This document shows positions 9,166-61,452 of a stretch of 64,000 nt of DNA, piece after piece (the first letter of the stretch is position 1; the number at the start of each line of letters is the position of its first letter). This DNA is from a virus. Made by a program: the position numbers and the translations under genes. The stretch lies in the IMG/VR virus record IMGVR_UViG_3300033149_003931, positions 1-64,000 of that record; one strand, given 5' to 3'. The notes beneath the pieces were generated by a model. The model was not told the origin of the DNA. It saw nothing but the letters and a program-made list of their open reading frames with translations, and ran no database searches.

Positions 9166-9444
9166 TTGAATTCAATAATATATTAATAATCATAAATATA
9201 GTAATAGTAAGTACATAGGTAATTTTTCATAGGAGGTCGAGGGCGGCTCTGCCGGACGAGTTTCTCCTCATAAAAAAGAAGAAAAAAGCCGGCGATCACG
9301 AACAGAGTTCGTGAGGGCGGATTTATTCGGAAGATGTCCTTTTATTAGTAAAAAAAAAAAAAACAAAAAAGGATTAAAATTGATTTGTTTATTAATAATT
9401 AAGGATAAAAAATATGGGAAAGTGATTGTTTTTTCTCTCAGTCG

Positions 9445-9464
9445 TTATTTGTATTTAAGTATAG
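9445..9464 (+). promoter_or_regulatory. Putative late promoter motif TTATTTGTATTTAA-N3-TAG, copy 1
   Basis: Exact 14-mer repeated at 12872 and 21055, each just upstream of an RBS. Confidence 0.7.
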
Positions 9465-9480
9465 AGGGTGGATACTACCT

Positions 9481-12801: not shown

Positions 12802-12871
12802 TAAATTTTTTGGGAGGCGACGCTCATAAGTTGATAAAATATACTAATAACGGAGGTTTTTCTTAAGGACG

Positions 12872-12891
12872 TTATTTGTATTTAATAGTAG
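12872..12891 (+). promoter_or_regulatory. Putative late promoter motif, copy 2
   Basis: TTATTTGTATTTAA-TAG-TAG before the tube/protease/capsid genes. Confidence 0.7.
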
Positions 12892-12911
12892 AAACCAAGG
12901 AGGAAATTAAT

Positions 12912-14536: not shown

Positions 14537-15475
14537 ATGGATTTTGTAATTCCTGCTGGTAGTGCTACTAATCTTCCAAAAGAATTAGTGGACAAGATTG
14601 TTGAAGACGCCATCGAAAAGTCTTTAGTTTTACGCATGGTCGATTCAAGGGATCAATTGATTGAGATCGTTAATGAGGGTACTATCCCGGTTATCGGTGA
14701 AGAGGATCTTGACAAAGTTTATCGTCTTGATAACACGGCTGATATTACTACATTGACTGAAATGAGTTTTGATATTAAGTCACCTGATTTGGAACCTGTT
14801 GAATTAGGTACTTATATCTATCTGAAGAAGAAACAGGTAGCTCAATATCCTGAACTCAAACTGGATCAATTGTTTCGTAATAAAATTAGTCGTGCGATTG
14901 CTCGTACAGCGGACAAGATGGCCCTTAAGGGTGACACAACTGCTGTTGGCGCAACGAATCCTCTGAATATTTCAGATGGTATCGAGAAACTGGCTAACAC
15001 GGCTAACGCCGCTAACGCCCCTGTTGAATATACGACTTCTAACGCACAGAACATTCTTGACGCTGTAGCTGAAGCACAGAGTGATCTTGGTGTTTATGGT
15101 TCTGAAGAAGATATGGAAGATTTAATTTTGCTTGGTTCTTCTGATTTCGTAACTGCCGCTAAGAAATCTGCATCTAAAGAGATGGTTGGTTATGATATTG
15201 AAGATGTACCTGCTATTAATCTTCGCCGAGTTGTTCATATTCATGGTATTCCATTGGTTCGTCGTCTAAATATTACGGGCGAAAAAGCCATTTTAGCAAA
15301 TATGAAAGGCGCTTTTGCTGGATATTATGGTAATATTGAAGTTGATGTTGAGCACAAAGCTGGCCGTCGGGCTGATCTCTTGGTTGTCACGTATTGGTTT
15401 GATTTTGTTTGGGCTTTTGTTAATGGCAGCAATAAGAGTGAGGGTTTGATTACTATTCAAAAAGCAAGTTCTTAA
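14537..15475 (+). CDS. Major capsid protein (HK97 fold)
   Basis: Follows protease; LPKEL.DKIVE...KSLV, AIAR..D..AL.GD, DGI.K; strong SD and downstream terminator. Confidence 0.88.
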   Translation: MDFVIPAGSATNLPKELVDKIVEDAIEKSLVLRMVDSRDQLIEIVNEGTIPVIGEEDLDKVYRLDNTADITTLTEMSFDIKSPDLEPVELGTYIYLKKKQVAQYPELKLDQLFRNKISRAIARTADKMALKGDTTAVGATNPLNISDGIEKLANTANAANAPVEYTTSNAQNILDAVAEAQSDLGVYGSEEDMEDLILLGSSDFVTAAKKSASKEMVGYDIEDVPAINLRRVVHIHGIPLVRRLNITGEKAILANMKGAFAGYYGNIEVDVEHKAGRRADLLVVTYWFDFVWAFVNGSNKSEGLITIQKASS

Positions 15476-15643: not shown

Positions 15644-18022
15644 ATGGCGGCCTTCAGACTTATTTCAGATGAGATTATTACTTACATACCTAATCCTTTC
15701 GACAAAACTCTCATAAAACAAAAAAATTATATTATCCCAAAACCTAAAGGTAAATGTACCGTTGTCGGTTTTGTAAGCCATTTAAAGGGGCCCGCAGCAA
15801 TTCATCCTTTGGTATACTCTTTGGTTGAACAAGGTATAGGAATTGTTTATGTTTGTGATAAAATGCCTTCAGAACCCCTTATTGATGAACACATTCATTA
15901 CTTAGAATGTCCGGATAGATGGTTCATTCATACTCTCTTCCTAAACCCGCTTAATTTTGCCTCAGTTTTTTGTTCTTGCTCGCATCAAAAGTTAGCTTTG
16001 GCCTTTTCTGAATTCACTAAATATTATATTCCAATATTAAACACCATACGTGATGTTTTAAGATTATCAAAAAATTTCGATTCAAATAAAAACACTGTGC
16101 TGGTAGAAATTTTTGGTGGCGTCGGGGATCATCTTTTAACTATTCCCTCATTGAAAACTTTAGCAAGTAAAGGGAATAAGGTCTTTGTATTATGCGAGGA
16201 TCATCGTAAACCCTGTTTTAATAACCTGCCTTATATTAAAGGCTTTTTCTCAAAAAGAAGTGACGTTAATATTTCCAAATTTAAAAAAATTATTTATTTA
16301 CACTTTGGGCAATTATTAAATGATTACAGGAAAGATTTTAATAAACAAAATAGAATTTATTCTGTAGCTGAGTTGTGTGGATTCAGACCAGAAGATTTGG
16401 TTATAGATACGCCAGAAATTATCTTTACTAAAGAGGAGTTAGCTTTAGCCAGAAGTAAGTGGGCCCCGTATAAAAATAAAATATTCTTAGGGTATGATAG
16501 TGCTAGAATTGATTCTAAGCTCCCGAATAATATGGCACAGAGTCTTATCAATAAGTTTAAAGCCCGAGGTCATACAGTTTTCGTAGCCTCTATTAGGCGA
16601 CATTCCTTTGAGAATTGTATAGACCTGAGTAAAAAGACATCACTAAGAGAAATGTTTGCGTTAATCGCTATGGTGGATTGTGTAGTTACCGTAGATACCT
16701 CTTTTCTTCATGTAGCCGGTGCCTTGAATAAAAAAACTTTTTGTATGTTAAATTATTTTAAACCGGAATGGAGGTGTGGGACGTATAAAAACTGTTCTAC
16801 ATACACCCCAAATGTTCCTTGTTTCCCTTGTGTTGCAAAGCAATTTGTTTCCTCAAAGGACTGGCAATGTCATAGAAAATCTTGTTATGAGTTTCAGGAT
16901 GTGGATAAAATAATGAATGACGTTTCTCAGTTTTTAGATAAACGTATTTGTGATGGAAAAGAGATTTTACAAGGCTCTAATTTAATAGGCGTGGAAATAA
17001 ACTTACCCGATAAAATAGATAGGCGTTTACTTCCCGGGAAAGTGATTTCAGTAAGAAAAACCGGTGGTAAAAAAATCGCGGCTTTTTGGATGGGTGGTTT
17101 AGGCGATTCGATAATGCTGAGTTATCTTTGTCGGGCTATTAAAAGAAAATATCCTGAAGCTAATATAGACGCCTTTGTAAGGGATGCAAGACAGGTTCAA
17201 TTTTTTGTATTCGATTATCCGGATATTAAAGCGCAGTTTTCTAATTTAGATTGGAGAAGGCTTTTTAAGAAAATAAAAAATGACTATGATATTATTTATG
17301 AATTTCGTCCGTATCCGTATATTTGGCATAATGATGATCCCAGTTTAAATAAGAAATTTGATGCAGAGTTATATAATAATTGGCAAAAATCTACGGGATA
17401 CATTCTTAATAATTGGAATAAGCAGACATTCCTTTATTATGCACAGCAAACTGAGTTAAACTTGACTGAACAGGATATGCAAATCCCTCTTGTGCATAAA
17501 GTCGACCTATCAGGGTTTTTAAGAGATAAATATAATTTAGGAGAGAAATATTTAACAATCAGTTCTGGGTGTGACCAAAATGTTGGTTTACTTAAGCTGT
17601 GGCCCAATAAGAAATGGGCTGAATTAATTAGTAAGTTAAAAGCTGAGGGATATACTGTTATCCAGTTAGGGGATAAAATAGACCCGGTATTGGACGGGGC
17701 GCGAAAAGTTTGTTGTAGGAATCTTATTGATTTAATGTATGTTTTAAAGAGGAGTCAATTTCATATTGGGAATGAGGGTGGCCCCATTCATTTAGCTCAT
17801 GCGGTAGGGACTAAGAGTATTGCTTTATTTGGGCCGACTAATCCAACGCTTTATGGTTATCCAGACAATATCAATATTTATAATCAAAAATGTCCCTCTT
17901 GTTGGTGGCTGGTTCAGGGTTGGAGTCAAAACTGTAAGAAGGGGTATAAGTCTTGTATTAATCTTGATGAAATTAGTGTTAATCAAGTTTATGGTGGTGT
18001 TTTGGAAGCAACCCGGATTTAA
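15644..18022 (+). CDS. Tandem double GT9 (ADP-heptose:heptosyltransferase-like) glycosyltransferase
   Basis: Two GGxGD starts (GGVGD, GGLGD) and two GT9 C-motifs (VTVDTSFLHVAGAL; IGNEGGPIHLAHAVG...LFGPT), each followed by a CxPC-like Cys cluster. Confidence 0.88.
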   Translation: MAAFRLISDEIITYIPNPFDKTLIKQKNYIIPKPKGKCTVVGFVSHLKGPAAIHPLVYSLVEQGIGIVYVCDKMPSEPLIDEHIHYLECPDRWFIHTLFLNPLNFASVFCSCSHQKLALAFSEFTKYYIPILNTIRDVLRLSKNFDSNKNTVLVEIFGGVGDHLLTIPSLKTLASKGNKVFVLCEDHRKPCFNNLPYIKGFFSKRSDVNISKFKKIIYLHFGQLLNDYRKDFNKQNRIYSVAELCGFRPEDLVIDTPEIIFTKEELALARSKWAPYKNKIFLGYDSARIDSKLPNNMAQSLINKFKARGHTVFVASIRRHSFENCIDLSKKTSLREMFALIAMVDCVVTVDTSFLHVAGALNKKTFCMLNYFKPEWRCGTYKNCSTYTPNVPCFPCVAKQFVSSKDWQCHRKSCYEFQDVDKIMNDVSQFLDKRICDGKEILQGSNLIGVEINLPDKIDRRLLPGKVISVRKTGGKKIAAFWMGGLGDSIMLSYLCRAIKRKYPEANIDAFVRDARQVQFFVFDYPDIKAQFSNLDWRRLFKKIKNDYDIIYEFRPYPYIWHNDDPSLNKKFDAELYNNWQKSTGYILNNWNKQTFLYYAQQTELNLTEQDMQIPLVHKVDLSGFLRDKYNLGEKYLTISSGCDQNVGLLKLWPNKKWAELISKLKAEGYTVIQLGDKIDPVLDGARKVCCRNLIDLMYVLKRSQFHIGNEGGPIHLAHAVGTKSIALFGPTNPTLYGYPDNINIYNQKCPSCWWLVQGWSQNCKKGYKSCINLDEISVNQVYGGVLEATRI

Positions 18023-18033
18023 GGAGATTTATT

Positions 18034-18567
18034 ATGCGATCAATTTCTGAAAAAGATTTAATTTTACTGTCTAATAAAAAATCTGGGATGAGTATTGTTG
18101 AACTGATTGAGCTTTGTAAATTAATTGATATACATAAGCCTAAAAGAATTTTAGAGATTGGTACCAAGCACGGAAGGACTACGATTAATATGGCTAAGTT
18201 TAGTCCTGAAGATGCTGAGATATTCTCTGTTGATATTTTGGTCTTAGATAAGCCTGAGATTTGTGAGTTATCTGAATATAAAAAGATTACTTTTCTTCAG
18301 GGCGATACCCTGACGTTTGATTTTAGGACTGTAGGTAAAGATCAGTTTGATTTTATTTTGGTGGATGCCAACCATCTTGAAAAATTTGTGATTAATGATA
18401 CCAAGATCGCTTATCATTTAATTAAGCCTGAGGGAATTATTGTTTGGCATGACTATAATAAAGATCAGTCGTATAACAATCTTCAGGTAACTCAAGCATT
18501 GAACAGGCTGGGAATTAAGCCTAATGTTATTGGTAAAACATCGTTGGTTTGGTTAAAGGTAAAATAA
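18034..18567 (+). CDS. Class I SAM-dependent O-methyltransferase (Methyltransf_24-like)
   Basis: ILEIGT..G.T, FDFILVDANH, GIIVWHDY. Confidence 0.85.
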   Translation: MRSISEKDLILLSNKKSGMSIVELIELCKLIDIHKPKRILEIGTKHGRTTINMAKFSPEDAEIFSVDILVLDKPEICELSEYKKITFLQGDTLTFDFRTVGKDQFDFILVDANHLEKFVINDTKIAYHLIKPEGIIVWHDYNKDQSYNNLQVTQALNRLGIKPNVIGKTSLVWLKVK

Positions 18568-18569
18568 TT

Positions 18570-19271
18570 ATGAAAGTTGGCAGAAAAATATTATTTGCAG
18601 GAACAACTTCCTCGGGATCATCTGCTTTGTTTGATTATTTTAGATGCTTTAAAAATACCTGTGGGATGGTGACTGAGATGCCTAGGGTGTGGCGGAAGAA
18701 TCTGTATCCTAAATGGAAACAGGAGCGTTTTAATCATCCAGAGAAGTATAAAGTCTTATTGAATAACGGGATTGAACAAGAGGCTCGTAAGAGATTTGGT
18801 AAAAAATTGGAGGCTTCGGTCTTATTATTAAACAACGTTGTGACCTGTTTAACCTTACCCGGGATTAAACTCTTGGATAATACTTTAGTTTTTTGTGTGC
18901 TAAGAGATCCAAGATCCACTTGGTTAAGACGCCGGCAATTATGTATTGAATCTGGTTGGCCTGTAGATGTAAACCAGTTTATTAAAGATTATAGAGTGCA
19001 ACGAGAAACATTTTCTAATCATTTAAAAGGCTTAAAGACTAATCGTAATAAAATTTATGTGGTTAATTTTGAGGATTTTTTATTAGATTTAGCATTTAAG
19101 AGACGGGTCGTTGAAATTGCTGGATTCAATATTGAAGAATACCCAAGTAATCCGAAGTATGCGCCGATACCAAAAGAGCAATCTATTTTATGGCATCATT
19201 TTTATGTTAAACAAGATGAGATTGATCTAATTAAACAGGAGTTGTTGGAGTATTGTCATCCAAGGGTTTAA
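18570..19271 (+). CDS. Sulfotransferase-like P-loop protein
   Basis: G..SSGSSALFDY (5'-PSB-like), VLRDPRSTW (3'-PB-like), VNFEDF. Confidence 0.7.
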   Translation: MKVGRKILFAGTTSSGSSALFDYFRCFKNTCGMVTEMPRVWRKNLYPKWKQERFNHPEKYKVLLNNGIEQEARKRFGKKLEASVLLLNNVVTCLTLPGIKLLDNTLVFCVLRDPRSTWLRRRQLCIESGWPVDVNQFIKDYRVQRETFSNHLKGLKTNRNKIYVVNFEDFLLDLAFKRRVVEIAGFNIEEYPSNPKYAPIPKEQSILWHHFYVKQDEIDLIKQELLEYCHPRV

Positions 19272-19273
19272 CT

Positions 19274-19705
19274 ATGCAAGGTCATCTTAAAAAATTTAAA
19301 GTAGGTATTACCTTTGGTGGGTTTGACCTCTGCCACATTGGGCATTTGAATCTTTTAAAACAGGCGAAGAAATTGTGTGATTATTTAGTTGTTTGTGTTA
19401 GTAATGATAGTTATATAAAGAAAATAAAAAAGTATGCTTCTGTTATCCCGTTAAAAGATAGAATTGAAATTATAAAAGCCATACGTTATGTTGACGAAGT
19501 TGATATTCAAAAATTAAATTTTGGAAAAAAACCATTAATAAAAAAGTATGGCGCAGATGTTATTTTTGTTGGTAATGACTGGACACCCGAAACATTTACT
19601 GGGGAAAATCTTGGGGTACCCGTTGTTTATTTGGATAGAACTAAAGGAATAAGTTCGACTCAATTACGAGTTAAATATTTAATTAATGGGGTAGATTATG
19701 GATAG
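19274..19705 (+). CDS. HIGH-family nucleotidyltransferase (TagD / RfaE domain II-like)
   Basis: GGFDLCHIGH.NLL..AK, R.EI..AIRYVDEV, GNDW, RT.GISST. Confidence 0.9.
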   Translation: MQGHLKKFKVGITFGGFDLCHIGHLNLLKQAKKLCDYLVVCVSNDSYIKKIKKYASVIPLKDRIEIIKAIRYVDEVDIQKLNFGKKPLIKKYGADVIFVGNDWTPETFTGENLGVPVVYLDRTKGISSTQLRVKYLINGVDYG

Positions 19706-20198
19706 GCTAAATTTAGGCTGTGGAAATAAGAAGTTCTCAGATTTTTTAAACGTGGATATTAGACCTGAAGTGAAACCAGATATTATTTTAGATATTTCCG
19801 ATCTTTCTCAATTTGAAAATCAAACTTTTTCGTATATCTTGGCTATGGATATTCTTGAGCATTTTCCCCATGCTAGGGTTTGGCCCGTATTAACGGAATG
19901 GGTTAGATGCTTAAAAATTGGTGGACAGATTGAGATACAGGTACCGAGTATTGATCGAATATATAAAGATAGAGATAAGTTAGTTAATAATTATGATGGT
20001 GATTCTTCTTTACGGTTTTCTCAATTAATTTTTGGGGGCCAAGGTTATCAAGATAATTTTCATTGTGTATTTTTTACGCCGGAATTTTTTAAATTAATGC
20101 CTAAACGCTTAGGATTGGAAATTACAAAATACTTTCCTGAGATTGGGTTGTATAATCATAAAGTAATTATGACTAAGATATATGAAATTAAAAAATAA
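19698..20198 (+). CDS. SAM-dependent methyltransferase (type 11-like)
   Basis: LNLGCG...F.NVDI, ILEHF, EW.RCLK.GG.IEI.VP. Confidence 0.85.
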   Translation: MDRLNLGCGNKKFSDFLNVDIRPEVKPDIILDISDLSQFENQTFSYILAMDILEHFPHARVWPVLTEWVRCLKIGGQIEIQVPSIDRIYKDRDKLVNNYDGDSSLRFSQLIFGGQGYQDNFHCVFFTPEFFKLMPKRLGLEITKYFPEIGLYNHKVIMTKIYEIKK

Positions 20199-21036
20199 AA
20201 ATCTGCTTTGGCTCACGGACTACACGGTGAAAGAAGTTCCTGCGGGTGGCGCGGAGATTACGGATTCCTATGTGATTCAGGCTGGAAAGTCTTTAGGGTA
20301 TTCTATCCAAGTGTGTTGTCCGAGTAACTTGAGATCAAATATTTTAGAAAAAAGTGATTTGGTAATTTTTAGTAATTGTTATGAGTTTCCGAAACCGGCC
20401 AGACAGATGATTATGGAGGAGAAGCCTTATGTTGTTTACTCCCATGATTCCGGTCGTTGGATGGAGGTCGTTAAAAGAAGCCCAAATATGATGAAAAATG
20501 CTCAGGCAAATATTTTTCTATCTCCGTTACACAGGGATTGTTTTTCTAAATTTTTAGTTGGGGCCAAGAATATTTTGTTAGTCCCACCCCATATTCCCGT
20601 GGAGTTTTATGATCGCGGCGCACAGCGGGTTAATAAGATTATTTTTGTTGGAAATATTCACGAAGGTAAAGGTATTTGTGAGATCATTCAATATGCAAAA
20701 GATAATCCTTGCATGGTTTTTGATTTTTATTACAAAAGGGGTGTTAGTTACCTTATTCGTCAGCTTAAGGCTTTAAATAACTGCAATTTAGTGGGTTATG
20801 TACCCAAAGAGGCGATATATAATAATTATAATAAATATAAATATTTTATTCATATACCACAGCATTATGAGTCTTTTGGTCGGGCCGTTGGGGAGGCATA
20901 TTTGTGCGGTTGTGAAATCATTGTAAATAAAAGGGTTGGAGCAGTTTCTTATGATTGGGACTACCAAACTTTCAGGAAAAGGACTATGCACGCTCATTTT
21001 ATTTTTTGGGAAAAGCTATCTAAAGCTTTGGATTAA
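20182..21036 (+). CDS. GT-B glycosyltransferase (GT4-like)
   Basis: GGAE, FVGNI...KG, ESFGRAVGEAYLCGC (EX7E). Confidence 0.85.
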   Translation: MKLKNKNLLWLTDYTVKEVPAGGAEITDSYVIQAGKSLGYSIQVCCPSNLRSNILEKSDLVIFSNCYEFPKPARQMIMEEKPYVVYSHDSGRWMEVVKRSPNMMKNAQANIFLSPLHRDCFSKFLVGAKNILLVPPHIPVEFYDRGAQRVNKIIFVGNIHEGKGICEIIQYAKDNPCMVFDFYYKRGVSYLIRQLKALNNCNLVGYVPKEAIYNNYNKYKYFIHIPQHYESFGRAVGEAYLCGCEIIVNKRVGAVSYDWDYQTFRKRTMHAHFIFWEKLSKALD

Positions 21037-21054
21037 GTTGGTTTCTATAAGGGT

Positions 21055-21074
21055 TTATTTGTATTTAATAATAG
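21055..21074 (+). promoter_or_regulatory. Putative late promoter motif, copy 3
   Basis: TTATTTGTATTTAA-TAA-TAG before 21085. Confidence 0.7.
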
Positions 21075-21084
21075 GGGGTGTCTA

Positions 21085-21531
21085 ATGAAAGTGTTTCTTT
21101 ATGGTAAATACACAATAGGGGATAAGATAATCCTATCACATTTTCAGAGTATACTCAAGAATTGTGAATACTTGGGGGAAAAGGTTGACTTATCTCGAAT
21201 CAATCCGGAACAAGAAAATCTTATTGTAGTATCCAATTCTAGTCTATTTCATATAGATCAGGATAAGGTATTGGGATATATTAATAAGGATTTAACTAAG
21301 CCTTTAATGGTTGTTCGTAAAATCAAGACTTTTGGAACGGTTTTTTTTGAACCGAATTTTCGGGTAGAAAAGATTACGACTAACAAGGGATATAATTTTG
21401 CAGGAATGTTATTTCTGCCGAAGAAATATTTAAAGGCGTTAAAAACCGGGAAGAAAACCATATCGGAAATTTTTCGGACTGTACCTTACGAGGATTGGAG
21501 ATTTTATATAATTAATTCTAAAAGGAAATAA
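21085..21531 (+). CDS. Divergent sugar-phosphate nucleotidyltransferase-like protein
   Basis: FGTV......VEKI......NFAGMLFL resembles the NTP_transferase core; N-terminal GGxGTR motif absent. Confidence 0.45.
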   Translation: MKVFLYGKYTIGDKIILSHFQSILKNCEYLGEKVDLSRINPEQENLIVVSNSSLFHIDQDKVLGYINKDLTKPLMVVRKIKTFGTVFFEPNFRVEKITTNKGYNFAGMLFLPKKYLKALKTGKKTISEIFRTVPYEDWRFYIINSKRK

Positions 21532-42350: not shown

Positions 42351-42602
42351 CTATTCTTGAGTCGTTAATTCTTTAATAACTTTTGCCAGAAGAATTTCTC
42401 GGGCCTCTTTTATTTTTACGGTATCTCGGATATTCTCAGGTGCAATATACTGAAGGGTTCCATAAAAGAGTCCTTGATAAGCTGCTTCCAAAATATAAAA
42501 TCCACCTAAACAAGTTTGAGGAAACTTTTTAACCCGTTTTCCTTTACTGTTTATATAAAGCAAACCCTCTTCCAAAATATTAATATCTTTTTTTAAGAGC
42601 AT
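42351..42602 (-). CDS. Hypothetical protein
   Basis: GGAGG SD within the upstream gene. Confidence 0.55.
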   Translation of the reverse strand: MLLKKDINILEEGLLYINSKGKRVKKFPQTCLGGFYILEAAYQGLFYGTLQYIAPENIRDTVKIKEAREILLAKVIKELTTQE

Positions 42603-43591
42603 AATTCCTCCGGTGTTACTACCGCTGTACCCATTTTGGAAACGACTATGCCAGCAGCTTTGTTAGCGAGTTTCGCTGCATCTAAGGGTTTCATTCTCAC
42701 GGATAAAGCTAAGGTATAAACCGCAATAACAGTATCTCCCGCTCCGGTGACATCAACAATATCTTGTTTTTCCGCAGATAAATGATTAACCCCATCATCT
42801 GAGAATAGGCATACACCTTGAGAGCTCATTGTTATCAAAAGTGTTTCTAACTCATAAGTCGTTCGTATAACCGCACCACGAAATTTAAGTTGATTTATTT
42901 CATGTGAATATTTATCCTTGCCTAAAATAGCAAATTCGGTAAGATTTGGGGTTATTGCAGTAAAATGCCGGAATAATTCCAAATCTGTTTTATGCGTATC
43001 TGCCGTAACAATCTTCTTATATTGCTTCTGTAAACAACTTATATGTTGTAAAAGCTCAGGATATACAACCCCTTTGTTGTAATCTGAAATAATAATAGCA
43101 TCAAAATATCTCATATGTCTATCCAAGTTTGCATGAAGAGCCTCTTTAAATTCAAGATTCTCTTCAACAGATGTTTTATTCTCATAATCAACCCTGAGTA
43201 ATTGATGATTCTCTGAAATAAACCGAGTTTTGATACTGGTTGGAACAGTTGTGTCTTTCATTAAGAGATCAATATTAATCTTTGATAAACTCAACAAATT
43301 CTTAATAACTAAGCCCGCCGGATCATCTCCAATACGCCCAATAAGCCAAACCTTTGCTCCAAGACTACTGAGGTTTCTTGCAACATTAGTGGCCCCACCT
43401 AACCGATAATACTGTTTCTTTTTATCAAGGATTGGAATTGGCGCTTCGGGCGAGACTCGTGTTACCGAGCCTTCGATATATTCATCTAAGATCACATCTC
43501 CAATCACCAAAATTTTTTGATTAGAAAAATCAATCAGATGTCGTTTCTTATACCTTATCATAGCTTTTTTATGTTTTTGCATATCACACAT
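42593..43591 (-). CDS. rfaE1: D-glycero-beta-D-manno-heptose-7-phosphate kinase (RfaE/HldE domain I, PfkB family)
   Basis: VIGDVILDEY..G.V.RVSPEAPIP, GGA.NVA.N, QLLRVD.E, ISDY.KG, TPN..E, DVTGAGDTV, AN.AAG.VV.K.GTA.V. Confidence 0.92.
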   Translation of the reverse strand: MCDMQKHKKAMIRYKKRHLIDFSNQKILVIGDVILDEYIEGSVTRVSPEAPIPILDKKKQYYRLGGATNVARNLSSLGAKVWLIGRIGDDPAGLVIKNLLSLSKINIDLLMKDTTVPTSIKTRFISENHQLLRVDYENKTSVEENLEFKEALHANLDRHMRYFDAIIISDYNKGVVYPELLQHISCLQKQYKKIVTADTHKTDLELFRHFTAITPNLTEFAILGKDKYSHEINQLKFRGAVIRTTYELETLLITMSSQGVCLFSDDGVNHLSAEKQDIVDVTGAGDTVIAVYTLALSVRMKPLDAAKLANKAAGIVVSKMGTAVVTPEELCS

Positions 43592-43825
43592 TTATTTTCT
43601 CATTTCCTTTTCATAATAGTCAGAGTCTTTATTTAAGCGGGATTTCCCGTCTTTATTCATATTCCAAGGATCAGAAACCTCTTTCATAATCGGTAAGATT
43701 TCCTTATCCTGTTCTAAGGCTACTTTAGATTTTCGTCTTAATCTTCGATTATTTTTCCGCTTATCGAATTTTTCACTATCCCCACCATGACCAGAAAAGG
43801 GACGGTTTTTTCTTGACCTACTCAT
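43592..43825 (-). CDS. Small basic conserved hypothetical protein
   Basis: MSRSRK..P.....SEK.DK...NRR.RR...S.PW.M.KDGK. Confidence 0.75.
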   Translation of the reverse strand: MSRSRKNRPFSGHGGDSEKFDKRKNNRRLRRKSKVALEQDKEILPIMKEVSDPWNMNKDGKSRLNKDSDYYEKEMRK

Positions 43826-43835
43826 GTCTTCTCCA

Positions 43836-43864
43836 AGTATACCATATTAATTTTGATTTGTCAA
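43836..43864 (-). promoter_or_regulatory. Sigma70-type promoter
   Basis: TTGACA-N17-TATACT with TG; shares AATATGGTATACT with the 55197 promoter. Confidence 0.8.
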
Positions 43865-44127
43865 GAAATATCTTTGGCAACTCGCCAAGCAATTGCCTGA
43901 CGGCCCTCTTTCTTAACATAAGCCTTTTTGACTAAGCCTTTACCTCTAAGTTCTTTGACCCTCGGAGTAACACAATTAATTGGCAGTCCGGTAAGGTGGG
44001 CTATCTCCAAATTGGTTACCGGAAAAGGATGGTTAATTAAGGCTTTCATAACCTGTGCTTGTTGCTTATTAATCTTTCCGGTTTTAATTAAGTCTTCATA
44101 TGATATAAAAAACGTATTTTGTAACAT
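43861..44127 (-). CDS. Winged-helix DNA-binding protein
   Basis: T..EIA..TGLPIN.VTPRV.EL...GLV. Confidence 0.8.
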   Translation of the reverse strand: MLQNTFFISYEDLIKTGKINKQQAQVMKALINHPFPVTNLEIAHLTGLPINCVTPRVKELRGKGLVKKAYVKKEGRQAIAWRVAKDIS

Positions 44128-44160
44128 TTGATTCCTCCTATTATGTGTTATAATTGACGT

Positions 44161-44604
44161 TTAAGTCAACTTTGACTTATATTCACCCGGGTTTAATTTC
44201 CGGGACTCTGTAATACGGTAACTGTCTTCATCTTTATGCGTCGTTGAAATCTCAAGAATTTTAGAAGCAAAAGTTCGAGAACGGAATTTATGAGCAAGAT
44301 ATGGTTTGATTCTTATTTGATCTTTGTGTTTTAAAACTCTCATCTTTATTTTGGTTAAGTCAATTGAGGCTGTGGCTTGGAGAATATTTCCCTTCACTGA
44401 CCATTTACTATCAGCAGATTTCCTTAAATCAAGATAGTATAATTCTACCTCGCCACAAAGAATATAAAATGTTTCATCTTTTTTAATATGATAGTGTAAA
44501 CTGCACTCATAACCGCTATTTAGATTGAGATATTTTGAACAGTAGAATTCAGTATTTATTAACCAATCTTCACTACCCCAGATTTTTTCAACATGGTTAA
44601 TCAT
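44161..44604 (-). CDS. Cupin-fold sugar-phosphate isomerase-like protein (mannose-6-phosphate isomerase type II-like)
   Basis: VEK.WG.E.W..N..FYC.K, SLHYH..KDETFY.L.G, H.F, LE.ST.H..EDSYR. Confidence 0.8.
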   Translation of the reverse strand: MINHVEKIWGSEDWLINTEFYCSKYLNLNSGYECSLHYHIKKDETFYILCGEVELYYLDLRKSADSKWSVKGNILQATASIDLTKIKMRVLKHKDQIRIKPYLAHKFRSRTFASKILEISTTHKDEDSYRITESRKLNPGEYKSKLT

Positions 44605-44963: not shown

Positions 44964-47171
44964 TTAACCCTCCAAATAAGTTAAAAATTGGCCTTGTTTT
45001 AAAGCCTCTGTTTCTCGCTCGTTACACTCAATTAATCTATTATTATTAAAATTAAATTTATAAAACAGTGATCCATGTTCTAAATCACCAGTTTGATTTT
45101 TTGAAACAAATAATTCAAGGATTGGATGATACTTGCCCGCATCATCTTTCCAATGATAGTTTGTATCATGTTTATTTTTTGCGGTATGGAAGTTTGAATA
45201 AATTCCTGCCACAAATCTTGCAGCATACCAAAAATCACAAGTATCCTTAATATCCTTTCCTGACGGTTTATCATTAGCGGATTTGGGTACTTCAGCCGTT
45301 GCAATCACCGGACAATTCATTTTTTGTGGAAGAGTCTTTAAATAAGAGGCTATTCGTTGAGCATTCTGCGTTGACTCTAACTCTCTTTTACCGGAGGCTC
45401 GTAAATCATGAATATTATCAATCACAAGTATAAAACGCTTTCCCCTATCCTCCGATATAGTTGAGTGAATCTTTACAAAATTATCTAAACTGTCAGTTGT
45501 TTGAATATCTGAACCGTCTTTAATAATTAGATTTTCTTTTAAAATCTGTAATTTTTTCATTCCATTAAACCATTGTTCTTCATATTTTTTATCGGGTTGA
45601 CGAATATTTCGGGAACTTAAATTAGCGGCAATACTCATTAAACGGGGAATAATTGATCTTTTTGCTCCATCATCTAATGAATAAAAAGCGACAAAGTTGT
45701 CTTTACTCTGAACAAGGTTGTAGACGAAATTAAGAAGAAACGCTGATTTACCCTGTTCTGGATGTCCGATAAATAAATATAGGGTATCCTCAAAACCACC
45801 AAATTTTTTATCAAAGATTGGAAAACCCGAAGTTCTTCCGGCAAAATTTTTATTCCAAGCCAACTCAGTAAAATCTTCTAAGAGTTCATCATAAGAATCC
45901 TTCTCCTGAACATATTGAATCATGTTGAAAGAGTCTTTATTATCACTTATATCATCAATGGATCGTGTTAGTTGTCTTTTACCAATATTTAAAACTTTCG
46001 CACACTCATTGATATAACCCTCTTTACGAATAAGATTCGGACAGCCGGCGATAAAATCATAAATTTTGTTAGCTTTGATTAGGCCCTTATCATAATTTTG
46101 TAAGAGGTAAGTAATTGCCGGAATCTTCGGAAGATTATTAAACTCCTCCAAAGTGTGCTTCTTCATATATTCATCTGGATCTGGTTTTGGTTCTCCCTCA
46201 ATAATTGGTACTTTAATAATTGAGATTTCCGTATCCAAATTCTTCATTCGTAATATAGTTCTTAAAAAGCCGTCCCGGGCCGTTCCTTTATAGAGGTTAT
46301 CCGGATCAAGAGATAATCTGATTTTCTTTAGATTCATCTCAGCAATCTTTTCTAAATTCGAGTCATTTACAACATTGGTAAGACAGGCCACGACATTCTG
46401 CTGTGGGTGTAAGGCAACGGCGTCGAATACACCTTCCACAATAGTTAGCTCCTCTTTCCCGCGAACTCTTTCAATATTAAATAAATTGCTTCCTTTAATA
46501 CAGATCTTGATATAAGGGTCATTATCCGTTGTATCAAACATTCGGATAATAATTCCAGTATATTGTTTATTCTCATCCCAGATAGGAATAACTAAACCCG
46601 ATTTATGAAATACCTGAAGTAATCTATAATCAAAGAGCATTTTAGATTCTTTGTTCATTTCCGAGGTAATATCTTCTGGGGATAAGTACCCGATTTTCCA
46701 AGCTTGGATTTTCTCTTTTGTCAATCCGCGGCGTTTATAAAAAGGAACACCTTTACTCGGGTTTGGTTTTGTGCAAGAAAGCTTATGCAGCTTTTCAAGA
46801 AAATTTCTTTGTCTTTGATAAGCCTTCTCCTTTGCTGAGTATTCATATTCCTCATCAATAGGAATCCTATATTTTTTTGCCAAATCTTTAACAACGGAAA
46901 AAAAGCTTGAACCCTTAATGGCCTTCCCCGTCTTTAAAGAGTAGACATCAAAAATATCATAAGACCTACACTCAACAAAACAATAAATCAATTTATTTTG
47001 AGAATCAGGCAAAAAGGCTGCGGAAAGCTTTCCCTCATCACCGTGATCGTGAGCCTCTGTATGCGGACATTGTACCTTAGTTCCGTTGGTTTTACAACCA
47101 AGTTCACTAAGGTATTCTGGTAATTTTGCCCGAATAAGTTCTTTTATCTTATTCAGATTTTTAATTCTCAC
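44964..47171 (-). CDS. Bifunctional DNA primase-helicase (Zn finger + TOPRIM + DnaB-like)
   Basis: CP...H...CF..C; IVEGVFD, LDPD, DPDE; Walker A GHPEQGKS, FYSLDD, VIDNIH, KNQTG. Confidence 0.92.
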   Translation of the reverse strand: MRIKNLNKIKELIRAKLPEYLSELGCKTNGTKVQCPHTEAHDHGDEGKLSAAFLPDSQNKLIYCFVECRSYDIFDVYSLKTGKAIKGSSFFSVVKDLAKKYRIPIDEEYEYSAKEKAYQRQRNFLEKLHKLSCTKPNPSKGVPFYKRRGLTKEKIQAWKIGYLSPEDITSEMNKESKMLFDYRLLQVFHKSGLVIPIWDENKQYTGIIIRMFDTTDNDPYIKICIKGSNLFNIERVRGKEELTIVEGVFDAVALHPQQNVVACLTNVVNDSNLEKIAEMNLKKIRLSLDPDNLYKGTARDGFLRTILRMKNLDTEISIIKVPIIEGEPKPDPDEYMKKHTLEEFNNLPKIPAITYLLQNYDKGLIKANKIYDFIAGCPNLIRKEGYINECAKVLNIGKRQLTRSIDDISDNKDSFNMIQYVQEKDSYDELLEDFTELAWNKNFAGRTSGFPIFDKKFGGFEDTLYLFIGHPEQGKSAFLLNFVYNLVQSKDNFVAFYSLDDGAKRSIIPRLMSIAANLSSRNIRQPDKKYEEQWFNGMKKLQILKENLIIKDGSDIQTTDSLDNFVKIHSTISEDRGKRFILVIDNIHDLRASGKRELESTQNAQRIASYLKTLPQKMNCPVIATAEVPKSANDKPSGKDIKDTCDFWYAARFVAGIYSNFHTAKNKHDTNYHWKDDAGKYHPILELFVSKNQTGDLEHGSLFYKFNFNNNRLIECNERETEALKQGQFLTYLEG

Positions 47172-55196: not shown

Positions 55197-55225
55197 AGTA
55201 TACCATATTTTTAAACGTTTGTCAA
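55197..55225 (-). promoter_or_regulatory. Sigma70-type promoter upstream of deoC-sigma-terminase-portal operon
   Basis: TTGACA-N17-TATACT with TG. Confidence 0.8.
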
Positions 55226-55673: not shown

Positions 55674-56825
55674 TTATGTCCTAAGATCCAGTTTATACGA
55701 CCAAGTTTCCACACGCTTTTTATTGCAACCAAAAAAATGTTGTCGTGGAACGGAGTATCTTTTGAAATGCTTAAAGGCCCAATTATCTCTCCAAACCCAA
55801 CAACCATTTTGTTTAACGATAACCTTATCTGAAATTTCTCTTTCTCGAAGTTGATGAAAATGACCTAAATGCAAACAGTCAAAGCCACCCATTTCACGAT
55901 AAAGATCATTGATTTGTTTTTCCAACGCATTTTCAGATTGCCCTTTAATTAAATCCCCATGTTCGAGTAAATGACGCCAAGGCCCTATTTTAACGATAGC
56001 CCTGTGGGAATCCGGAACATTGATTTTGATTCGTTTACTCTCTTGAAATTGTTTTTCCCAAGTTTTATAAACAAAATATTCAAAATTGTTTTCCACGGGC
56101 TCCTCATATTGAAACTGAGACCGGCCATGATTCCCGACAACGCAATTAACCTCTACCTCGTCATAAACACGAAGGAGATCCTTAAAGAATTGAGCAAAGG
56201 CGGGAATAGTTCTCCACATTTGCCGACCAACACATTCTTCAATTTCAAAGACCTGTTCAGGAAAAATACGGTCATTCGTAATGATGTCTCCCAAAATATT
56301 AATATAAATCTTTCTCAATTGATAAGAATTCGATAAGATTCTATGAATACCTATAATCCCGTGTTCCAGATTATTCAATTCTTGAAAGAAAATTTTATTA
56401 TTATAGGTGATAATAGTTTTACAGCTTTTATTGTCATAGGTTTTATTAATCATACCACCATGAACATCACTTATATCCAAGATAGAAAATTCTTCCGGCT
56501 TACCCTTAACAAATCGACATTTTGGTTCATCCAACTTTACGACTTTAAAATTATTATACAATTGAGCACCGAGGTATTTAATTAATTGATCTGCTTCAAC
56601 TTTTGTAACACGTTTACGTTTCACCTCTTTAATAAGAATTTCGTCACTAACAACAATTTTTCTTTCTTTACGGTATTTTACAAGACCGTAATTATTAATC
56701 ATGCGTTCCATGGCCTTTACAGTGGTTTTAAACTCTAAAGCCAACTCAGGGTTTGTAGCACCAAATTTAAGACCAAAGATTACCTTCTCACGTTTAGCCT
56801 CAGTCCATATATTTTTCTTAAGCAT
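55674..56825 (-). CDS. Calcineurin-like metallophosphoesterase with N-terminal HTH
   Basis: SDVH.G, LGDI, GNHGR, HGD, GHFH. Confidence 0.88.
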   Translation of the reverse strand: MLKKNIWTEAKREKVIFGLKFGATNPELALEFKTTVKAMERMINNYGLVKYRKERKIVVSDEILIKEVKRKRVTKVEADQLIKYLGAQLYNNFKVVKLDEPKCRFVKGKPEEFSILDISDVHGGMINKTYDNKSCKTIITYNNKIFFQELNNLEHGIIGIHRILSNSYQLRKIYINILGDIITNDRIFPEQVFEIEECVGRQMWRTIPAFAQFFKDLLRVYDEVEVNCVVGNHGRSQFQYEEPVENNFEYFVYKTWEKQFQESKRIKINVPDSHRAIVKIGPWRHLLEHGDLIKGQSENALEKQINDLYREMGGFDCLHLGHFHQLREREISDKVIVKQNGCWVWRDNWAFKHFKRYSVPRQHFFGCNKKRVETWSYKLDLRT

Positions 56826-57787: not shown

Positions 57788-57816
57788 AGTATAACATATT
57801 TTTAACGTTAAGTCAA
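57788..57816 (-). promoter_or_regulatory. Sigma70-type promoter
   Basis: TTGACT-N17-TATACT with TG; AATATGTTATACT. Confidence 0.75.
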
Positions 57817-58969: not shown

Positions 58970-59402
58970 TCCACTCTCCGAGTTCTTTTAAGGCCCGCTT
59001 ATAACCATCAATATGAATTTTTTCTTGCCCAGAATATTTAATAGCTGTCTTAGCTTGATGAATCATTCTTTTGTAATGTTTCGGATATTCTTTTTTCGCT
59101 GTTTTTAATGCGAACAATTCCGCATTATATTCGTGTTCTGTGGCGTTATTATATCGAAAGTCATAGGTCAAGTGTCCGAGTTCATGTAGAATAACATGTA
59201 AAATATCAACCCTGTTCGATAGAATCTTTGTGCTATAATTAATGATATATTCATTGGTACTGTCACAACGGTAAACAGAAGCTCTGTTACTAATTCGGTT
59301 GTCTTTAACTAAACGAATCTTGTATCTCTTATCTAAACCGAGTTTAACGATCCAATAATGACAGTACCTTGTGAATATATTTATTTTCGTTAGTTCTTTC
59401 AT
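58962..59402 (-). CDS. Zincin metallopeptidase-like protein (ImmA/IrrE-like)
   Basis: LHELGH...E..AE.FA. Confidence 0.7.
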   Translation of the reverse strand: MKELTKINIFTRYCHYWIVKLGLDKRYKIRLVKDNRISNRASVYRCDSTNEYIINYSTKILSNRVDILHVILHELGHLTYDFRYNNATEHEYNAELFALKTAKKEYPKHYKRMIHQAKTAIKYSGQEKIHIDGYKRALKELGEWNE

Positions 59403-60550
59403 TTTTCAGGGATAATTGCCACTAATTTGCCGGTTTCAAAATTTGCTTTTTCCGCCAGATTATTGAGATCCTCAAGAGTTATGTTCTGCATATTTCTTTC
59501 ATAATTTTTGATGTACATCTCGTAATCTTGTTCGGCCAATGTAGAGTCAATTAATAACTTTGCTATAGTTGATTTCTTATCCAAATTTAGTTCATGCTTA
59601 CCAAGCCATTTGCGACGGGCAAATTCCATCTCTTCTTCGGTAACGGGTTTTGCCAACTGCTCTCGCATAAGCTTAGTTGCTAATTCAACCTTACTCGGCA
59701 TTAGTCCGGCGTAGCCCCAATATTGGACTGTTCCACAACTATGCACTTGATAGTAAAGACTGGTATGATAAACCAAATTATTTTGTTCCCGGATAACATC
59801 AAAGAATCTCCCGGAAAACCCGTTCATAATGGCTGAGAATAACTCAATAGTAAAATAATCCTTTATCTCGTTTAGTTGGATCAAACCTGTTACCACCATA
59901 TTGGCCTGATTAACCCCTTTGCGTTTGATAATATAATCATCATGAGAGTAATCAAGGCTTTCCTGCGAGAAATCCGGCTTGGCATAGACTCTGTTTCTTG
60001 CCTCGCTAGGAATACCACCAATGTCTAAATCAATTTTAGATTGATAATGCTTCTCATAATATTCAACTAAAGTCTCCCGAGTAATCCCGGAAACCGTTTC
60101 TCTGGTACCGATAATTGGAATATGAAGACCAGAGCCTTCTTTATAGACCGTTTGTTGCGCCAAAGAAAAGATGTGAGACTGTGGGTTATCTTCATACATT
60201 TCCAATTCCTGTAAGACCACCTGCTTTTCCTTTTCCAACTCTTCGGCAGGAAAAATTGAATTATTAACCATATCACTTATGACTTCCCGGGCCACATCAG
60301 CATACTTGTTACTAATAAGCGCATAATAGAAGGTATGCTCCTCTGAAGTCCAAGCATTAAACTGAGCCCCGTATTTTTCCATAGCATATTTCAGGTCATT
60401 TTTATTCCGAGTTGTCGTACCCTTAAATAACATATGCTCTAAAAAATGTGATATTCCCTTTATTGAATCGGGGTCATTTCTTGACCCAACCGGGATCATC
60501 GTTCCCACCAAAGTAGAATTACCGCCTGTCTTAATTTTAATTTCAGCCAT
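59399..60550 (-). CDS. M16 (insulinase/pitrilysin) family peptidase
   Basis: VGSR.D....GISHFLEHMLFKGT, FNAWTS.E.T.YY, EKEK.VV.QE, PIIGT.E, R.F..IRE...LVY. Confidence 0.92.
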   Translation of the reverse strand: MAEIKIKTGGNSTLVGTMIPVGSRNDPDSIKGISHFLEHMLFKGTTTRNKNDLKYAMEKYGAQFNAWTSEEHTFYYALISNKYADVAREVISDMVNNSIFPAEELEKEKQVVLQELEMYEDNPQSHIFSLAQQTVYKEGSGLHIPIIGTRETVSGITRETLVEYYEKHYQSKIDLDIGGIPSEARNRVYAKPDFSQESLDYSHDDYIIKRKGVNQANMVVTGLIQLNEIKDYFTIELFSAIMNGFSGRFFDVIREQNNLVYHTSLYYQVHSCGTVQYWGYAGLMPSKVELATKLMREQLAKPVTEEEMEFARRKWLGKHELNLDKKSTIAKLLIDSTLAEQDYEMYIKNYERNMQNITLEDLNNLAEKANFETGKLVAIIPEK

Positions 60551-61452
60551 CAGTTTCTCTCCTTAATTTGTTTTAAGATATGTGTAATAACGTCTACTGT
60601 CCAACCATTTCCTAAACATTTGTATCTTTGAGTGTTAGAAACCCCCCAAGTATAATCATCGGGAAGAGTTTGTAAGCGTTCACATTCTAAGGGACTAAGT
60701 TTACGAGTATAACTACCATCTGAAACCAATAACCCAAACTTTTTACGTTTTAACATACTTTTTGGATTCTCTTTATAGATTGTTGCTAACAAAGTTTGGG
60801 CTTTATCTGTAAAAACCAATTGTTTTCTTGCCCTCCTAAAATATTGATCTAAATTGCCGCCTTTGTAATAATTAGCATCAATACAATATGATTTATCTCT
60901 ATCTACTGCATCATCTTCAATAATATCCTTTAAATAAATATGTTTATCTTTAGGTTGAGTAACATTAGGAATATTTGTCCAGTATAATCTCTTTCTGTTT
61001 TGAGCCGAAACTAAAGCAGAATTTATTAAAATTGGTTCAGTTCCAAAAAGACCATTAATATATTCTATAAACTCCTTTTTCATTCTAACATTTTCAAATA
61101 AAAATTTAACATTCGGATTTTTCATTGTTATTTCTTGCCAAATATCAATTAAATCATGAACCAATGCGCCTCTAGGGTCGTTATCACCTTTTTGTTTACC
61201 AGCAATTGACCAAGCCTGACAAGGGAATCCTGCTACCAATAAATCAATTTGACTAAAATCAACATCCCATTCTTTCCATTTAGTAAGATCTCCTAATTGA
61301 ATTGTATTAGGATAATTCTTTTGGGCAATTTTATTAGCATACTTATCAATTTCAGAAGAATAATAATTATTAATAGGAATATATAATCTGTCTAATGCGA
61401 CATTAAGACACGAAATCCCATTAAACAAACTCATTACATTAATTGGTTTCAT
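60550..61452 (-). CDS. dcm: DNA (cytosine-5) methyltransferase
   Basis: SLFNG, SEID, GFPCQ, FENV, Q.RKRLYW, R.L.P.ECERLQT.PD.YT, LGNGW. Confidence 0.92.
   Translation of the reverse strand: MKPINVMSLFNGISCLNVALDRLYIPINNYYSSEIDKYANKIAQKNYPNTIQLGDLTKWKEWDVDFSQIDLLVAGFPCQAWSIAGKQKGDNDPRGALVHDLIDIWQEITMKNPNVKFLFENVRMKKEFIEYINGLFGTEPILINSALVSAQNRKRLYWTNIPNVTQPKDKHIYLKDIIEDDAVDRDKSYCIDANYYKGGNLDQYFRRARKQLVFTDKAQTLLATIYKENPKSMLKRKKFGLLVSDGSYTRKLSPLECERLQTLPDDYTWGVSNTQRYKCLGNGWTVDVITHILKQIKERN

Follow-up and report, generated by a model that had tools for sequence, protein, structure and literature searches.

Gene layout of the kinase–cupin locus

The genes described here lie in a 64,000-nucleotide stretch of phage DNA (IMG/VR record IMGVR_UViG_3300033149_003931, positions 1 to 64,000), which we call the window and which covers the initial 64 kb of a complete genome (92,567 bp, direct terminal repeats, completeness rating of 100%). 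On its minus strand the window encodes a predicted heptose kinase and, close by, a cupin related to sugar isomerases; some 23 kb away, on the plus strand, a tandem protein of glycosyltransferase family 9 (GT9) follows the major capsid gene. We propose that the cupin and the kinase would provide a heptose precursor for the GT9 protein, with the steps in between left largely to the host. The features of the kinase–cupin locus are as follows.

42593..43591, minus strand: PfkB/HldA-type kinase, 332 residues (open reading frame, ORF, and hidden Markov model, HMM)
43592..43825, minus strand: 77-residue ORF, first gene of the kinase transcription unit (no Pfam match)
43836..43864, minus strand: sigma70-like promoter candidate with an extended -10 element (TTGACA-N17-TG-TATACT), 11/12 consensus matches
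43861..44127, minus strand: 88-residue ORF between cupin and kinase (HTH_IclR 17.8 bits and HTH_24 16.6 bits, both below the cut-off)
44161..44604, minus strand: metal-binding cupin of the D-lyxose/D-mannose isomerase type, 147 residues (Lyx_isomer HMM and fold model)
44964-47171, minus strand: primase-helicase, in the same minus-strand block as the kinase and the cupin

The block that contains these genes is long and also encodes an exonuclease, the portal and probably the terminase. Since it mixes replication genes with those of the portal and terminase, early and late genes cannot be told apart by strand alone. The 88-residue ORF product has weak winged-helix/helix-turn-helix similarity. 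Both small ORFs are missing in the nearest relative (L005), where the gap between cupin and kinase is only 192 nt, and they are thus an insertion in the present phage.

Predicted heptose kinase

The initial annotation described 42593-43591 as a stand-alone RfaE domain I kinase, and the gene is present as such. The product matches PfkB with 141 bits and the TIGR02198 model (rfaE_dom_I) with 323.3 bits (cut-off 345) over positions 3-311 of 315, the second-best family being ribokinase at 83 bits; the HMM scores of the four genes described are far beyond chance. The sole strong match in the PDB is Burkholderia HldA (4e84, 180 bits), and the identity to the kinase half of Escherichia coli HldE is 38%. 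When the kinase is aligned with its cellular and viral relatives, the PfkB catalytic motifs (GAGD with the catalytic Asp, and NxxE) and the N-terminal GD..LD and SPEAP lid motifs are invariant (D280, G283, G285, D286, N216, E219, G31, D36, P48, E49, A50 and P51). On its sequence the protein is predicted to be a stand-alone heptose-7-phosphate kinase of the HldA/HldE-domain-I type.

Stand-alone heptose kinases are a normal bacterial form, as in Burkholderia HldA. Because the cellular relatives of the phage kinase are themselves stand-alone HldA-type enzymes, the gene is of the HldA type and no piece of a broken HldE, and its interpretation as a fragment of a split HldE was ruled out. The kinase is kept in all three relatives with long contigs.

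Sequence, site and fold of the cupin

The cupin sugar isomerase-like gene recognized initially at 44161-44604 also holds up, with a PF07385 (Lyx_isomer) score of 21.8 bits against a cut-off of 20.8. Residues H37, H39, K42, E44 and H105, which form an HxH..K.E..H site, are invariant among 24 sequences of the family, which also shares an N-terminal KxWGxE and a C-terminal EDSYR motif. The protein therefore has the His-His-Glu-His metal site, with a Lys between the second His and the Glu, by which the D-lyxose isomerase family is recognized. The AF2 model has a pLDDT of 90, and its best Foldseek matches are D-lyxose/D-mannose isomerases, which show the highest identities (22-24%); phosphomannose isomerase is also listed. 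A profile of the cupin family matches 2y0o at 5e-11 and 7nzo at 3e-10, with the YCxKxL, HxH..K.E, His and E-x-S positions aligned.

The fold and metal ligands of the D-lyxose/D-mannose isomerases (Bacillus subtilis YdaE, 2y0o; Thermofilum, 7nzo; E. coli Z5688, 3kmh) are the same as those of the cupin, and the YCxKxL and HxH..K.E motifs are common to both. The phage-type cupins differ in being shorter (112-147 residues, compared with about 170-225 for the lyxose isomerases) and in carrying the KxWGxE and EDSYR motifs, which are specific to their own family. As judged from sequence and modelled fold, 44161-44604 encodes a metal-binding relative of the D-lyxose/D-mannose isomerases within the cupins. 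These enzymes carry out a manno-type aldose–ketose isomerization, which is also what the GmhA step requires. The cupin is not a member of the SIS family to which GmhA belongs, and the two folds are unrelated. A phosphorylated seven-carbon substrate would be expected for the cupin, given its genomic association with a sugar-phosphate pathway.

Gene context of the cupin

Gene context is the strongest argument for the cupin as an isomerase. The family comprises at least 589 viral and at least 186 prokaryotic matches. When 80 prokaryotic loci were examined to a distance of 8 kb from the cupin, the kinase occurred in 39, a nucleotidyltransferase (NTase) in 35, GmhB in 27, GT9 and an HldD-like epimerase in 24 each, and GmhA in just one. 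DPANN archaea have a recurrent same-strand operon with the order cupin-HldD-kinase-GmhB-NTase (for example L039, L068, L075 and L092), in which the cupin takes the slot of GmhA, and kinase and cupin form a single fused ORF of 412-441 residues in ten of the 39 prokaryotic loci that have both. Among 80 kinase-anchored viral loci, 47 have the cupin only, eight have GmhA only, one has both and 24 have neither (Fisher p = 0.002, a value that is inflated by the phylogenetic relatedness of the loci and so overstates their independence).

The kinase neighbourhood, the near-absence of GmhA, the GmhA operon slot and the kinase fusions lead us to conclude that the cupin is probably a non-orthologous sedoheptulose-7-phosphate isomerase, that is, a GmhA substitute whose substrate is deduced from the genes around it. 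A literature search found no paper describing a cupin with this activity.

The cyanophage version of the cassette consists of an NTase, a kinase, a 111-114-residue protein annotated as 'phosphoheptose isomerase', a cupin labelled 'cysteine dioxygenase' and an epimerase. The small protein (T4-GC 306; PSSM2_311 of P-SSM2, L013:6716-7060, and SSSM7_130 of S-SSM7, L014:7685-8020) has DxDGT, TAR and K..DD motifs; its Pfam matches are solely to the HAD superfamily and its PDB profile match is a 134-residue 'capsule biosynthesis protein' (9e-17). The identification comes from member-wise Pfam and PDB-profile searches, hhalign comparisons with single E. coli GmhB and GmhA sequences being too weak to use. 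On these matches T4-GC 306 is a minimal HAD phosphatase, contradicting its label, and the 'cysteine dioxygenase' (T4-GC 307) belongs to the lyxose-isomerase-like cupin family. With the small HAD protein assigned as a phosphatase, the cupin is the sole candidate isomerase in the viral cassettes.

Tandem GT9 protein and the capsid-side glycan cassette

The plus strand carries, in order, genes for a protease/scaffold protein, the capsid protein, the double GT9 protein, a methyltransferase, a 240-residue protein, an NTase, a second methyltransferase and a GT4 enzyme. The features of this region are as follows.

12859..12897, plus strand: repeated motif, candidate late promoter (other copies 9432-9470 and 21042-21080; common core GTTATTTGTATTTAA)
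14537..15475, plus strand: major capsid protein, HK97-like (Phage_capsid 29.6 bits; phrog_10)
15644..18022, plus strand: tandem GT9 protein, 792 residues (PF01075)
18034..18567, plus strand: S-adenosylmethionine (SAM)-dependent (O-)methyltransferase (Methyltransf_24 49 bits; Methyltransf_3 35 bits)
18549..19271, plus strand: sulfotransferase-like protein, 240 residues (ESM Atlas; no Pfam match)
19274..19705, plus strand: TagD-family cytidylyltransferase, probable CDP-glycerol synthase (TagD alignment and tree)
19698..20198, plus strand: second SAM-dependent methyltransferase (Methyltransf_11 25 bits, cut-off 21.2)
20182..21036, plus strand: GT4-type (Glycos_transf_1) glycosyltransferase (PF00534 35.9 bits)
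21085..21531, plus strand: conserved 148-residue protein, kept in all relatives

The GT9 gene was thus confirmed at the distance from the kinase and cupin given by the initial annotation. The PF01075 match (91.2 bits, gathering threshold 22) falls into two stretches, at approximately residues 313-374 and 616-738, which indicates two GT9 modules. The top PDB match is heptosyltransferase II (1psw), and no specific similarity of the protein to TibC/Aah was found. Its membership of the GT9 family suggests that ADP-heptose is the donor.

Across 13 related viral contigs the capsid protein is 82-94% identical, and the double GT9 gene directly follows the capsid gene in every relative that covers this stretch (55-69% identity), with variable genes downstream of it. 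In the relative G043 (IMGVR_UViG_3300014204_000149) the GT9 gene (L188:11217-15500) encodes 1427 residues, with an intein in the GT9 region that has a LAGLIDADG/homing-endonuclease core and a C-terminal fusion to a GT2 domain; downstream of it lie genes for a pyruvyl transferase and for methyltransferases of the FkbM type and others. For a glycosyltransferase gene to contain an intein is unusual, which points to its importance for the phage. The constant core of the clade is the capsid gene with the tandem GT9 gene, the kinase and usually the cupin. As GT9 accompanies the cupin–kinase cluster in 24 of the 80 prokaryotic loci, the two phage modules appear to be functionally tied.

The 240-residue protein falls in ESM Atlas sulfotransferase clusters (features 0.96-0.97, structure TM 0.72-0.79). 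The 148-residue protein is 66-78% identical in relatives, including one without the TagD-like gene. Its ESM Atlas feature scores are 0.90-0.92 and its AF2 model has a pLDDT of 42; with 12 clusters in 1.8 billion proteins, the family is too small to be linked to any known family, and possible membership of the NTP-transferase clan, as a divergent member, is a weak lead.

Missing steps, expression and proposed pathway

The initial annotation had noted that GmhA and GmhB were not visible in the window, and this holds well beyond it: neither GmhA (TIGR00441 and PF13580, SIS_2) nor GmhB (TIGR00213) has a match in the complete genome, and neither do PF01370 (short-chain dehydrogenase/reductase epimerase) and the PF00483 transferase, so that the extension of the search to the rest of the genome yielded no gmhA, gmhB or hldD. 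Apart from an NT5C-type 5'-nucleotidase and PNKP, the genome encodes no HAD enzymes. A weak NTase-like match at 55752-55910 was rejected, being the GHxH motif of a metallophosphoesterase-like protein and no transferase. With no heptose phosphatase, NTase or epimerase recognized in the phage, these activities would have to come from the host or from an unrecognized phage protein, such as the 148-residue ORF product.

Two sets of promoter-like motifs bear on expression. The sigma70-like site at 43836-43864 lies upstream of the 77-residue ORF and the kinase and has near-identical minus-strand copies at 55197-55225 and 57788-57816; together the three look like a promoter class for replication-side genes. 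On the plus strand, three copies of the repeat family D1 share GTTATTTGTATTTAA, and their positions (9432, 12859 and 21042) group the glycan cassette with the scaffold and capsid genes as one unit. The copy at 12859-12897 is a candidate late promoter that would head the unit of scaffold/protease, capsid and glycan cassette. As consensus matches, the motifs are compatible with reading of the precursor genes by the host polymerase and with late reading of the transferases, and to that extent with the early stockpiling and late transfer suggested by the initial annotation.

The phage heptose route put forward in the initial annotation is borne out to the extent that a heptose kinase, a relative of cupin isomerases and a GT9 protein were all found. 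In the route that we propose, the cupin would perform the first committed step, the isomerization of sedoheptulose 7-phosphate, in place of GmhA, and the HldA-type kinase would then yield the beta-1,7-bisphosphate. Both enzymes would be made from the replication-side minus-strand module, the kinase from behind its sigma70-like promoter candidate. The 7-phosphatase, heptose-1-phosphate nucleotidyltransferase and epimerase steps would be left to the host or to an unrecognized phage protein. The tandem GT9 protein, apparently co-transcribed with the capsid gene, would use the resulting ADP-heptose, and the heptosylated product would be tailored by the two methyltransferases, the sulfotransferase, the TagD-like CDP-glycerol synthase and the GT4 enzyme. 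By position, and by analogy with the capsid-adjacent glycosyltransferases of mycobacteriophages, a virion protein is the most likely heptose acceptor. Taken as a whole, a model in which the cupin and the HldA-type kinase feed the capsid-side tandem GT9 protein, the host fills the gaps and a virion protein is the acceptor is in our view somewhat probable.

Several observations weigh against this model, in addition to the relatedness of the viral loci mentioned above. The kinase scores slightly below the NCBIfam equivalog cut-off (323 versus 345 bits), and the activity of the cupin family is a prediction from sequence, fold and gene context. A GmhA-sized SIS_2 protein is present elsewhere in about 14 of 38 genomes with both cupin and kinase, the remainder being incomplete metagenome-assembled genomes; this set includes the unpublished G027 (L070) and G031 (L079), which enter the tallies only and on neither of which any claim rests. 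Among the relatives with long contigs, the cupin is intact in one and broken by a stop in another, and the third, which is 77% complete, has the kinase with no detectable cupin. The link between GT9 and the capsid is positional only. Finally, a pathway that ends at the bisphosphate depends on host GmhB and on HldC or HldE. Searching cultured phages with the region by megablast gave no match, the helicase search returned distant phages only and a tRNA search of the phage found none, so that these searches yielded no host assignment.

Alternative explanations

The enzymes might remodel the host envelope, acting on the lipopolysaccharide (LPS) core or another heptose glycan, for example to block superinfection or to change receptor display. 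Such a role is a long-standing proposal for the cyanophage 'LPS genes'. It is in keeping with the fact that the characterized GT9 enzymes are mostly LPS heptosyltransferases, as is the best PDB match here, and with the homologous kinase-NTase-phosphatase-cupin-epimerase cassette that cyanophages carry with no GT9 gene adjacent to it (GT9 is nearby in none of 80 viral cupin loci). However, in the present phage and its relatives GT9 is fixed directly behind the capsid gene in a late structural unit, which is late for a surface change before lysis, and no lysogeny genes were seen in the annotated parts of the phage. We consider an envelope role unlikely, and a virion acceptor remains our preferred reading.

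The initial annotation had proposed a split HldE, in which the kinase at 42593 is one half and the HIGH-motif nucleotidyltransferase at 19274-19705 the adenylyltransferase half, the two being expressed early and late. The transferase gene is where it was placed, with the start codon as given (the longest ORF is 19253-19705 and the called protein begins at the ATG at 19274). Its protein belongs to the same superfamily as HldE domain II, shares 33% identity with the C-terminal half of E. coli HldE over 128 residues, scores 73.4 bits against TIGR02199 (rfaE_dom_II; cut-off 181.5) and shares a cassette with the GT9 gene. Homologous NTases abut the heptose kinase in cyanophages, and some HldE-type enzymes take several nucleoside triphosphates (PMC11573728). 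The protein is nonetheless nearer to TagD, as the initial annotation had itself cautioned that it might be. Its whole length can be aligned with TagD of B. subtilis (1coz, 78 bits, residues 10-133 on chain residues 3-124), including the HxGH, RYVDEV, GNDW and RTKGISST blocks, compared with 25 bits for HldC (5x9q) and 35 bits for an RfaE-II-like protein. The TagD model TIGR01518 gives 86.4 bits, below its cut-off of 165.4, and we therefore describe the protein as TagD-like and not as TagD.

Phylogeny and gene content point the same way. In a tree of 97 NTases the kinase-linked enzymes (E. coli HldE-II and those of the DPANN operon and the cyanophages) form one clade; the 19274 protein lies outside it, next to stand-alone enzymes named glycerol-3-phosphate cytidylyltransferase by their sources. 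The gene travels neither with GT9 nor with the kinase: it adjoins the sulfotransferase-like gene in every relative that carries this NTase, and G043, a complete 87-kb genome that has kept the kinase, the cupin and the double GT9, has zero PF01467 proteins. The 19274 protein is most likely a TagD-like tailoring enzyme of the glycan cassette, a probable CDP-glycerol synthase, and the claim that it is the missing half of HldE was not upheld; a split HldE is quite unlikely. Compared with TagD (1coz), with which it has the HxGH, RYVDEV, GxDW and RTxGISTT blocks in common along the full length, the phage protein differs in its setting, a capsid-side glycan cassette beside a sulfotransferase, where a CDP-glycerol role is predicted. 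For annotation, the lesson is that a HIGH-motif transferase near a GT9 gene is no proof of HldE domain II.

In some relatives the tandem GT9 gene is immediately followed by a second cytidylyltransferase-like gene (L180:8790-9170, L183:10385-10777 and L184:6983-7387), which is divergent (34-39% identical to 19274) and not present in this phage. By position, this gene is a better heptose-transferase candidate than 19274.

The cupin could also be a later tailoring enzyme, for example a nucleoside-diphosphate-heptose C3/C5 epimerase resembling the Campylobacter cupins, with the first step performed by host GmhA. The GDP-mannoheptose C3,5-epimerases 7ani and 7an4 appear lower in the list of fold matches, and the SIS_2 proteins in about 14 of the 38 cupin-bearing genomes would fit. 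These epimerases, however, need a 4-keto intermediate, and the cupin has no accompanying dehydrogenase. The best profile matches, the top identities and the catalytic Lys/Glu pattern all favour aldose–ketose isomerases, as do the near mutual exclusion of cupin and GmhA beside viral kinases and the ten kinase fusions. We regard a tailoring role as very unlikely and the isomerase assignment as the better one.

It is equally improbable that the heptose is destined for the phage DNA, a hypermodification for which there is precedent in a reconstituted phage cluster (a HAD/kinase fusion, a cytidylyltransferase and a GT-B enzyme) that made 5-heptosyl- and di-heptosyl-methylcytosine by adding mono- or di-heptose to 5-hydroxymethylcytosine (bioRxiv 10.1101/2023.12.21.572611): the phage does have a C5-cytosine methylase (60550-61452), a kinase and cupin among replication genes and a tandem GT9 protein of the GT-B fold that would suit di-heptose, but the complete genome yielded neither a TET/JBP dioxygenase nor a thymidylate-synthase-like hydroxymethylase (a divergent oxygenase is possible among several unassigned ORFs of about 200 residues), GT9 lies in the capsid operon, and its companions (O-methyltransferases, a sulfotransferase and, in a relative, a pyruvyl transferase) are typical of glycan tailoring.

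Other genes

Nucleotide metabolism is represented outside the window by the N-terminal domain of a dATP/dGTP diphosphohydrolase (PF18909, 53 bits) and a separate MazG-like pyrophosphohydrolase (genome positions 66393-67067 and 88204-88755), which hint at nucleotide-pool editing as in phages with non-canonical bases. The C5-cytosine methylase gene adjoins that of a complete two-domain M16 (insulinase-type) peptidase (59399-60550, minus strand). A fusion of an ArdC-like anti-restriction N-terminal domain and a zincin-like metallopeptidase, with 123 bits for each, is encoded at 3619-4536 on the minus strand. Also outside the window, a family-A DNA polymerase (genome 72893-75418) has an N-terminal domain of the uracil-DNA-glycosylase superfamily and a 3'-5' exonuclease domain, and an RNA-repair set (genome 77461-83573) comprises the PNKP kinase-phosphatase, an RlaP-type nucleotidyltransferase and two RNA ligases; this set may counter a tRNA-cleaving host defence.

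Significance and comparison with known systems

Heptose nucleotides are building blocks of the LPS core and strong agonists of innate immunity, and GmhA is viewed both as the enzyme that universally begins their synthesis and as a target for drugs. If the cupin is indeed another isomerase, unrelated to GmhA, the capacity for heptose synthesis would have to be read differently from genomes, the cupin being mislabelled at present, for example as cysteine dioxygenase. To our knowledge, no heptose-based virion glycan has been described so far; protein O-heptosylation by GT9-like enzymes, the bacterial autotransporter heptosyltransferases, is established chemistry. The combination of a tandem heptosyltransferase gene beside the capsid gene and tailoring enzymes that can be swapped suggests that virion glycan coats extend beyond the actinophages. 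In its broadest form, our reading would be that the phage coats its capsid or another virion protein with a methylated, sulfated and glycerophosphorylated heptose glycan, that the supply of the precursor is boosted by a cupin sedoheptulose-7-phosphate isomerase and an HldA-type kinase, and that this cupin is an unrecognized first heptose enzyme in hundreds of marine phages, many DPANN archaea and bacteria of the candidate phyla radiation. We put this forward tentatively, as a possibility that is on balance doubtful.

Set against the bacterial heptose pathway, the phage has a clear HldA/HldE-I homologue for the kinase step and GT9-type consumers. The phage kinase alone is orthologous; the isomerase slot is occupied by a cupin, and the phosphatase, NTase and epimerase are not encoded. 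The two GT9 modules of the phage are, in addition, fused and located in the capsid operon.

Viruses that encode a heptose kinase and a nucleotidyltransferase are already known (Tang et al., Science 2024, as referred to in PMC11573728). The closest counterpart examined here is the cyanomyophage cassette T4-GC 304-308 of P-SSM2 and S-SSM7, which has homologues of the phage kinase, cupin and NTase at 30-36% identity. Cyanophages hold the NTase, kinase, small HAD protein, cupin and epimerase together, whereas the present phage pairs only the cupin and the kinase, and its NTase is of a different, TagD-like branch and lies in another module. For the capsid side the parallel is the virion glycosylation of mycobacteriophages, for which glycosyltransferase genes beside capsid genes are cited in PMC11256854. 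The mycobacteriophages and this phage are alike in having a glycosyltransferase gene beside the capsid gene, a link that in the present case is one of position.

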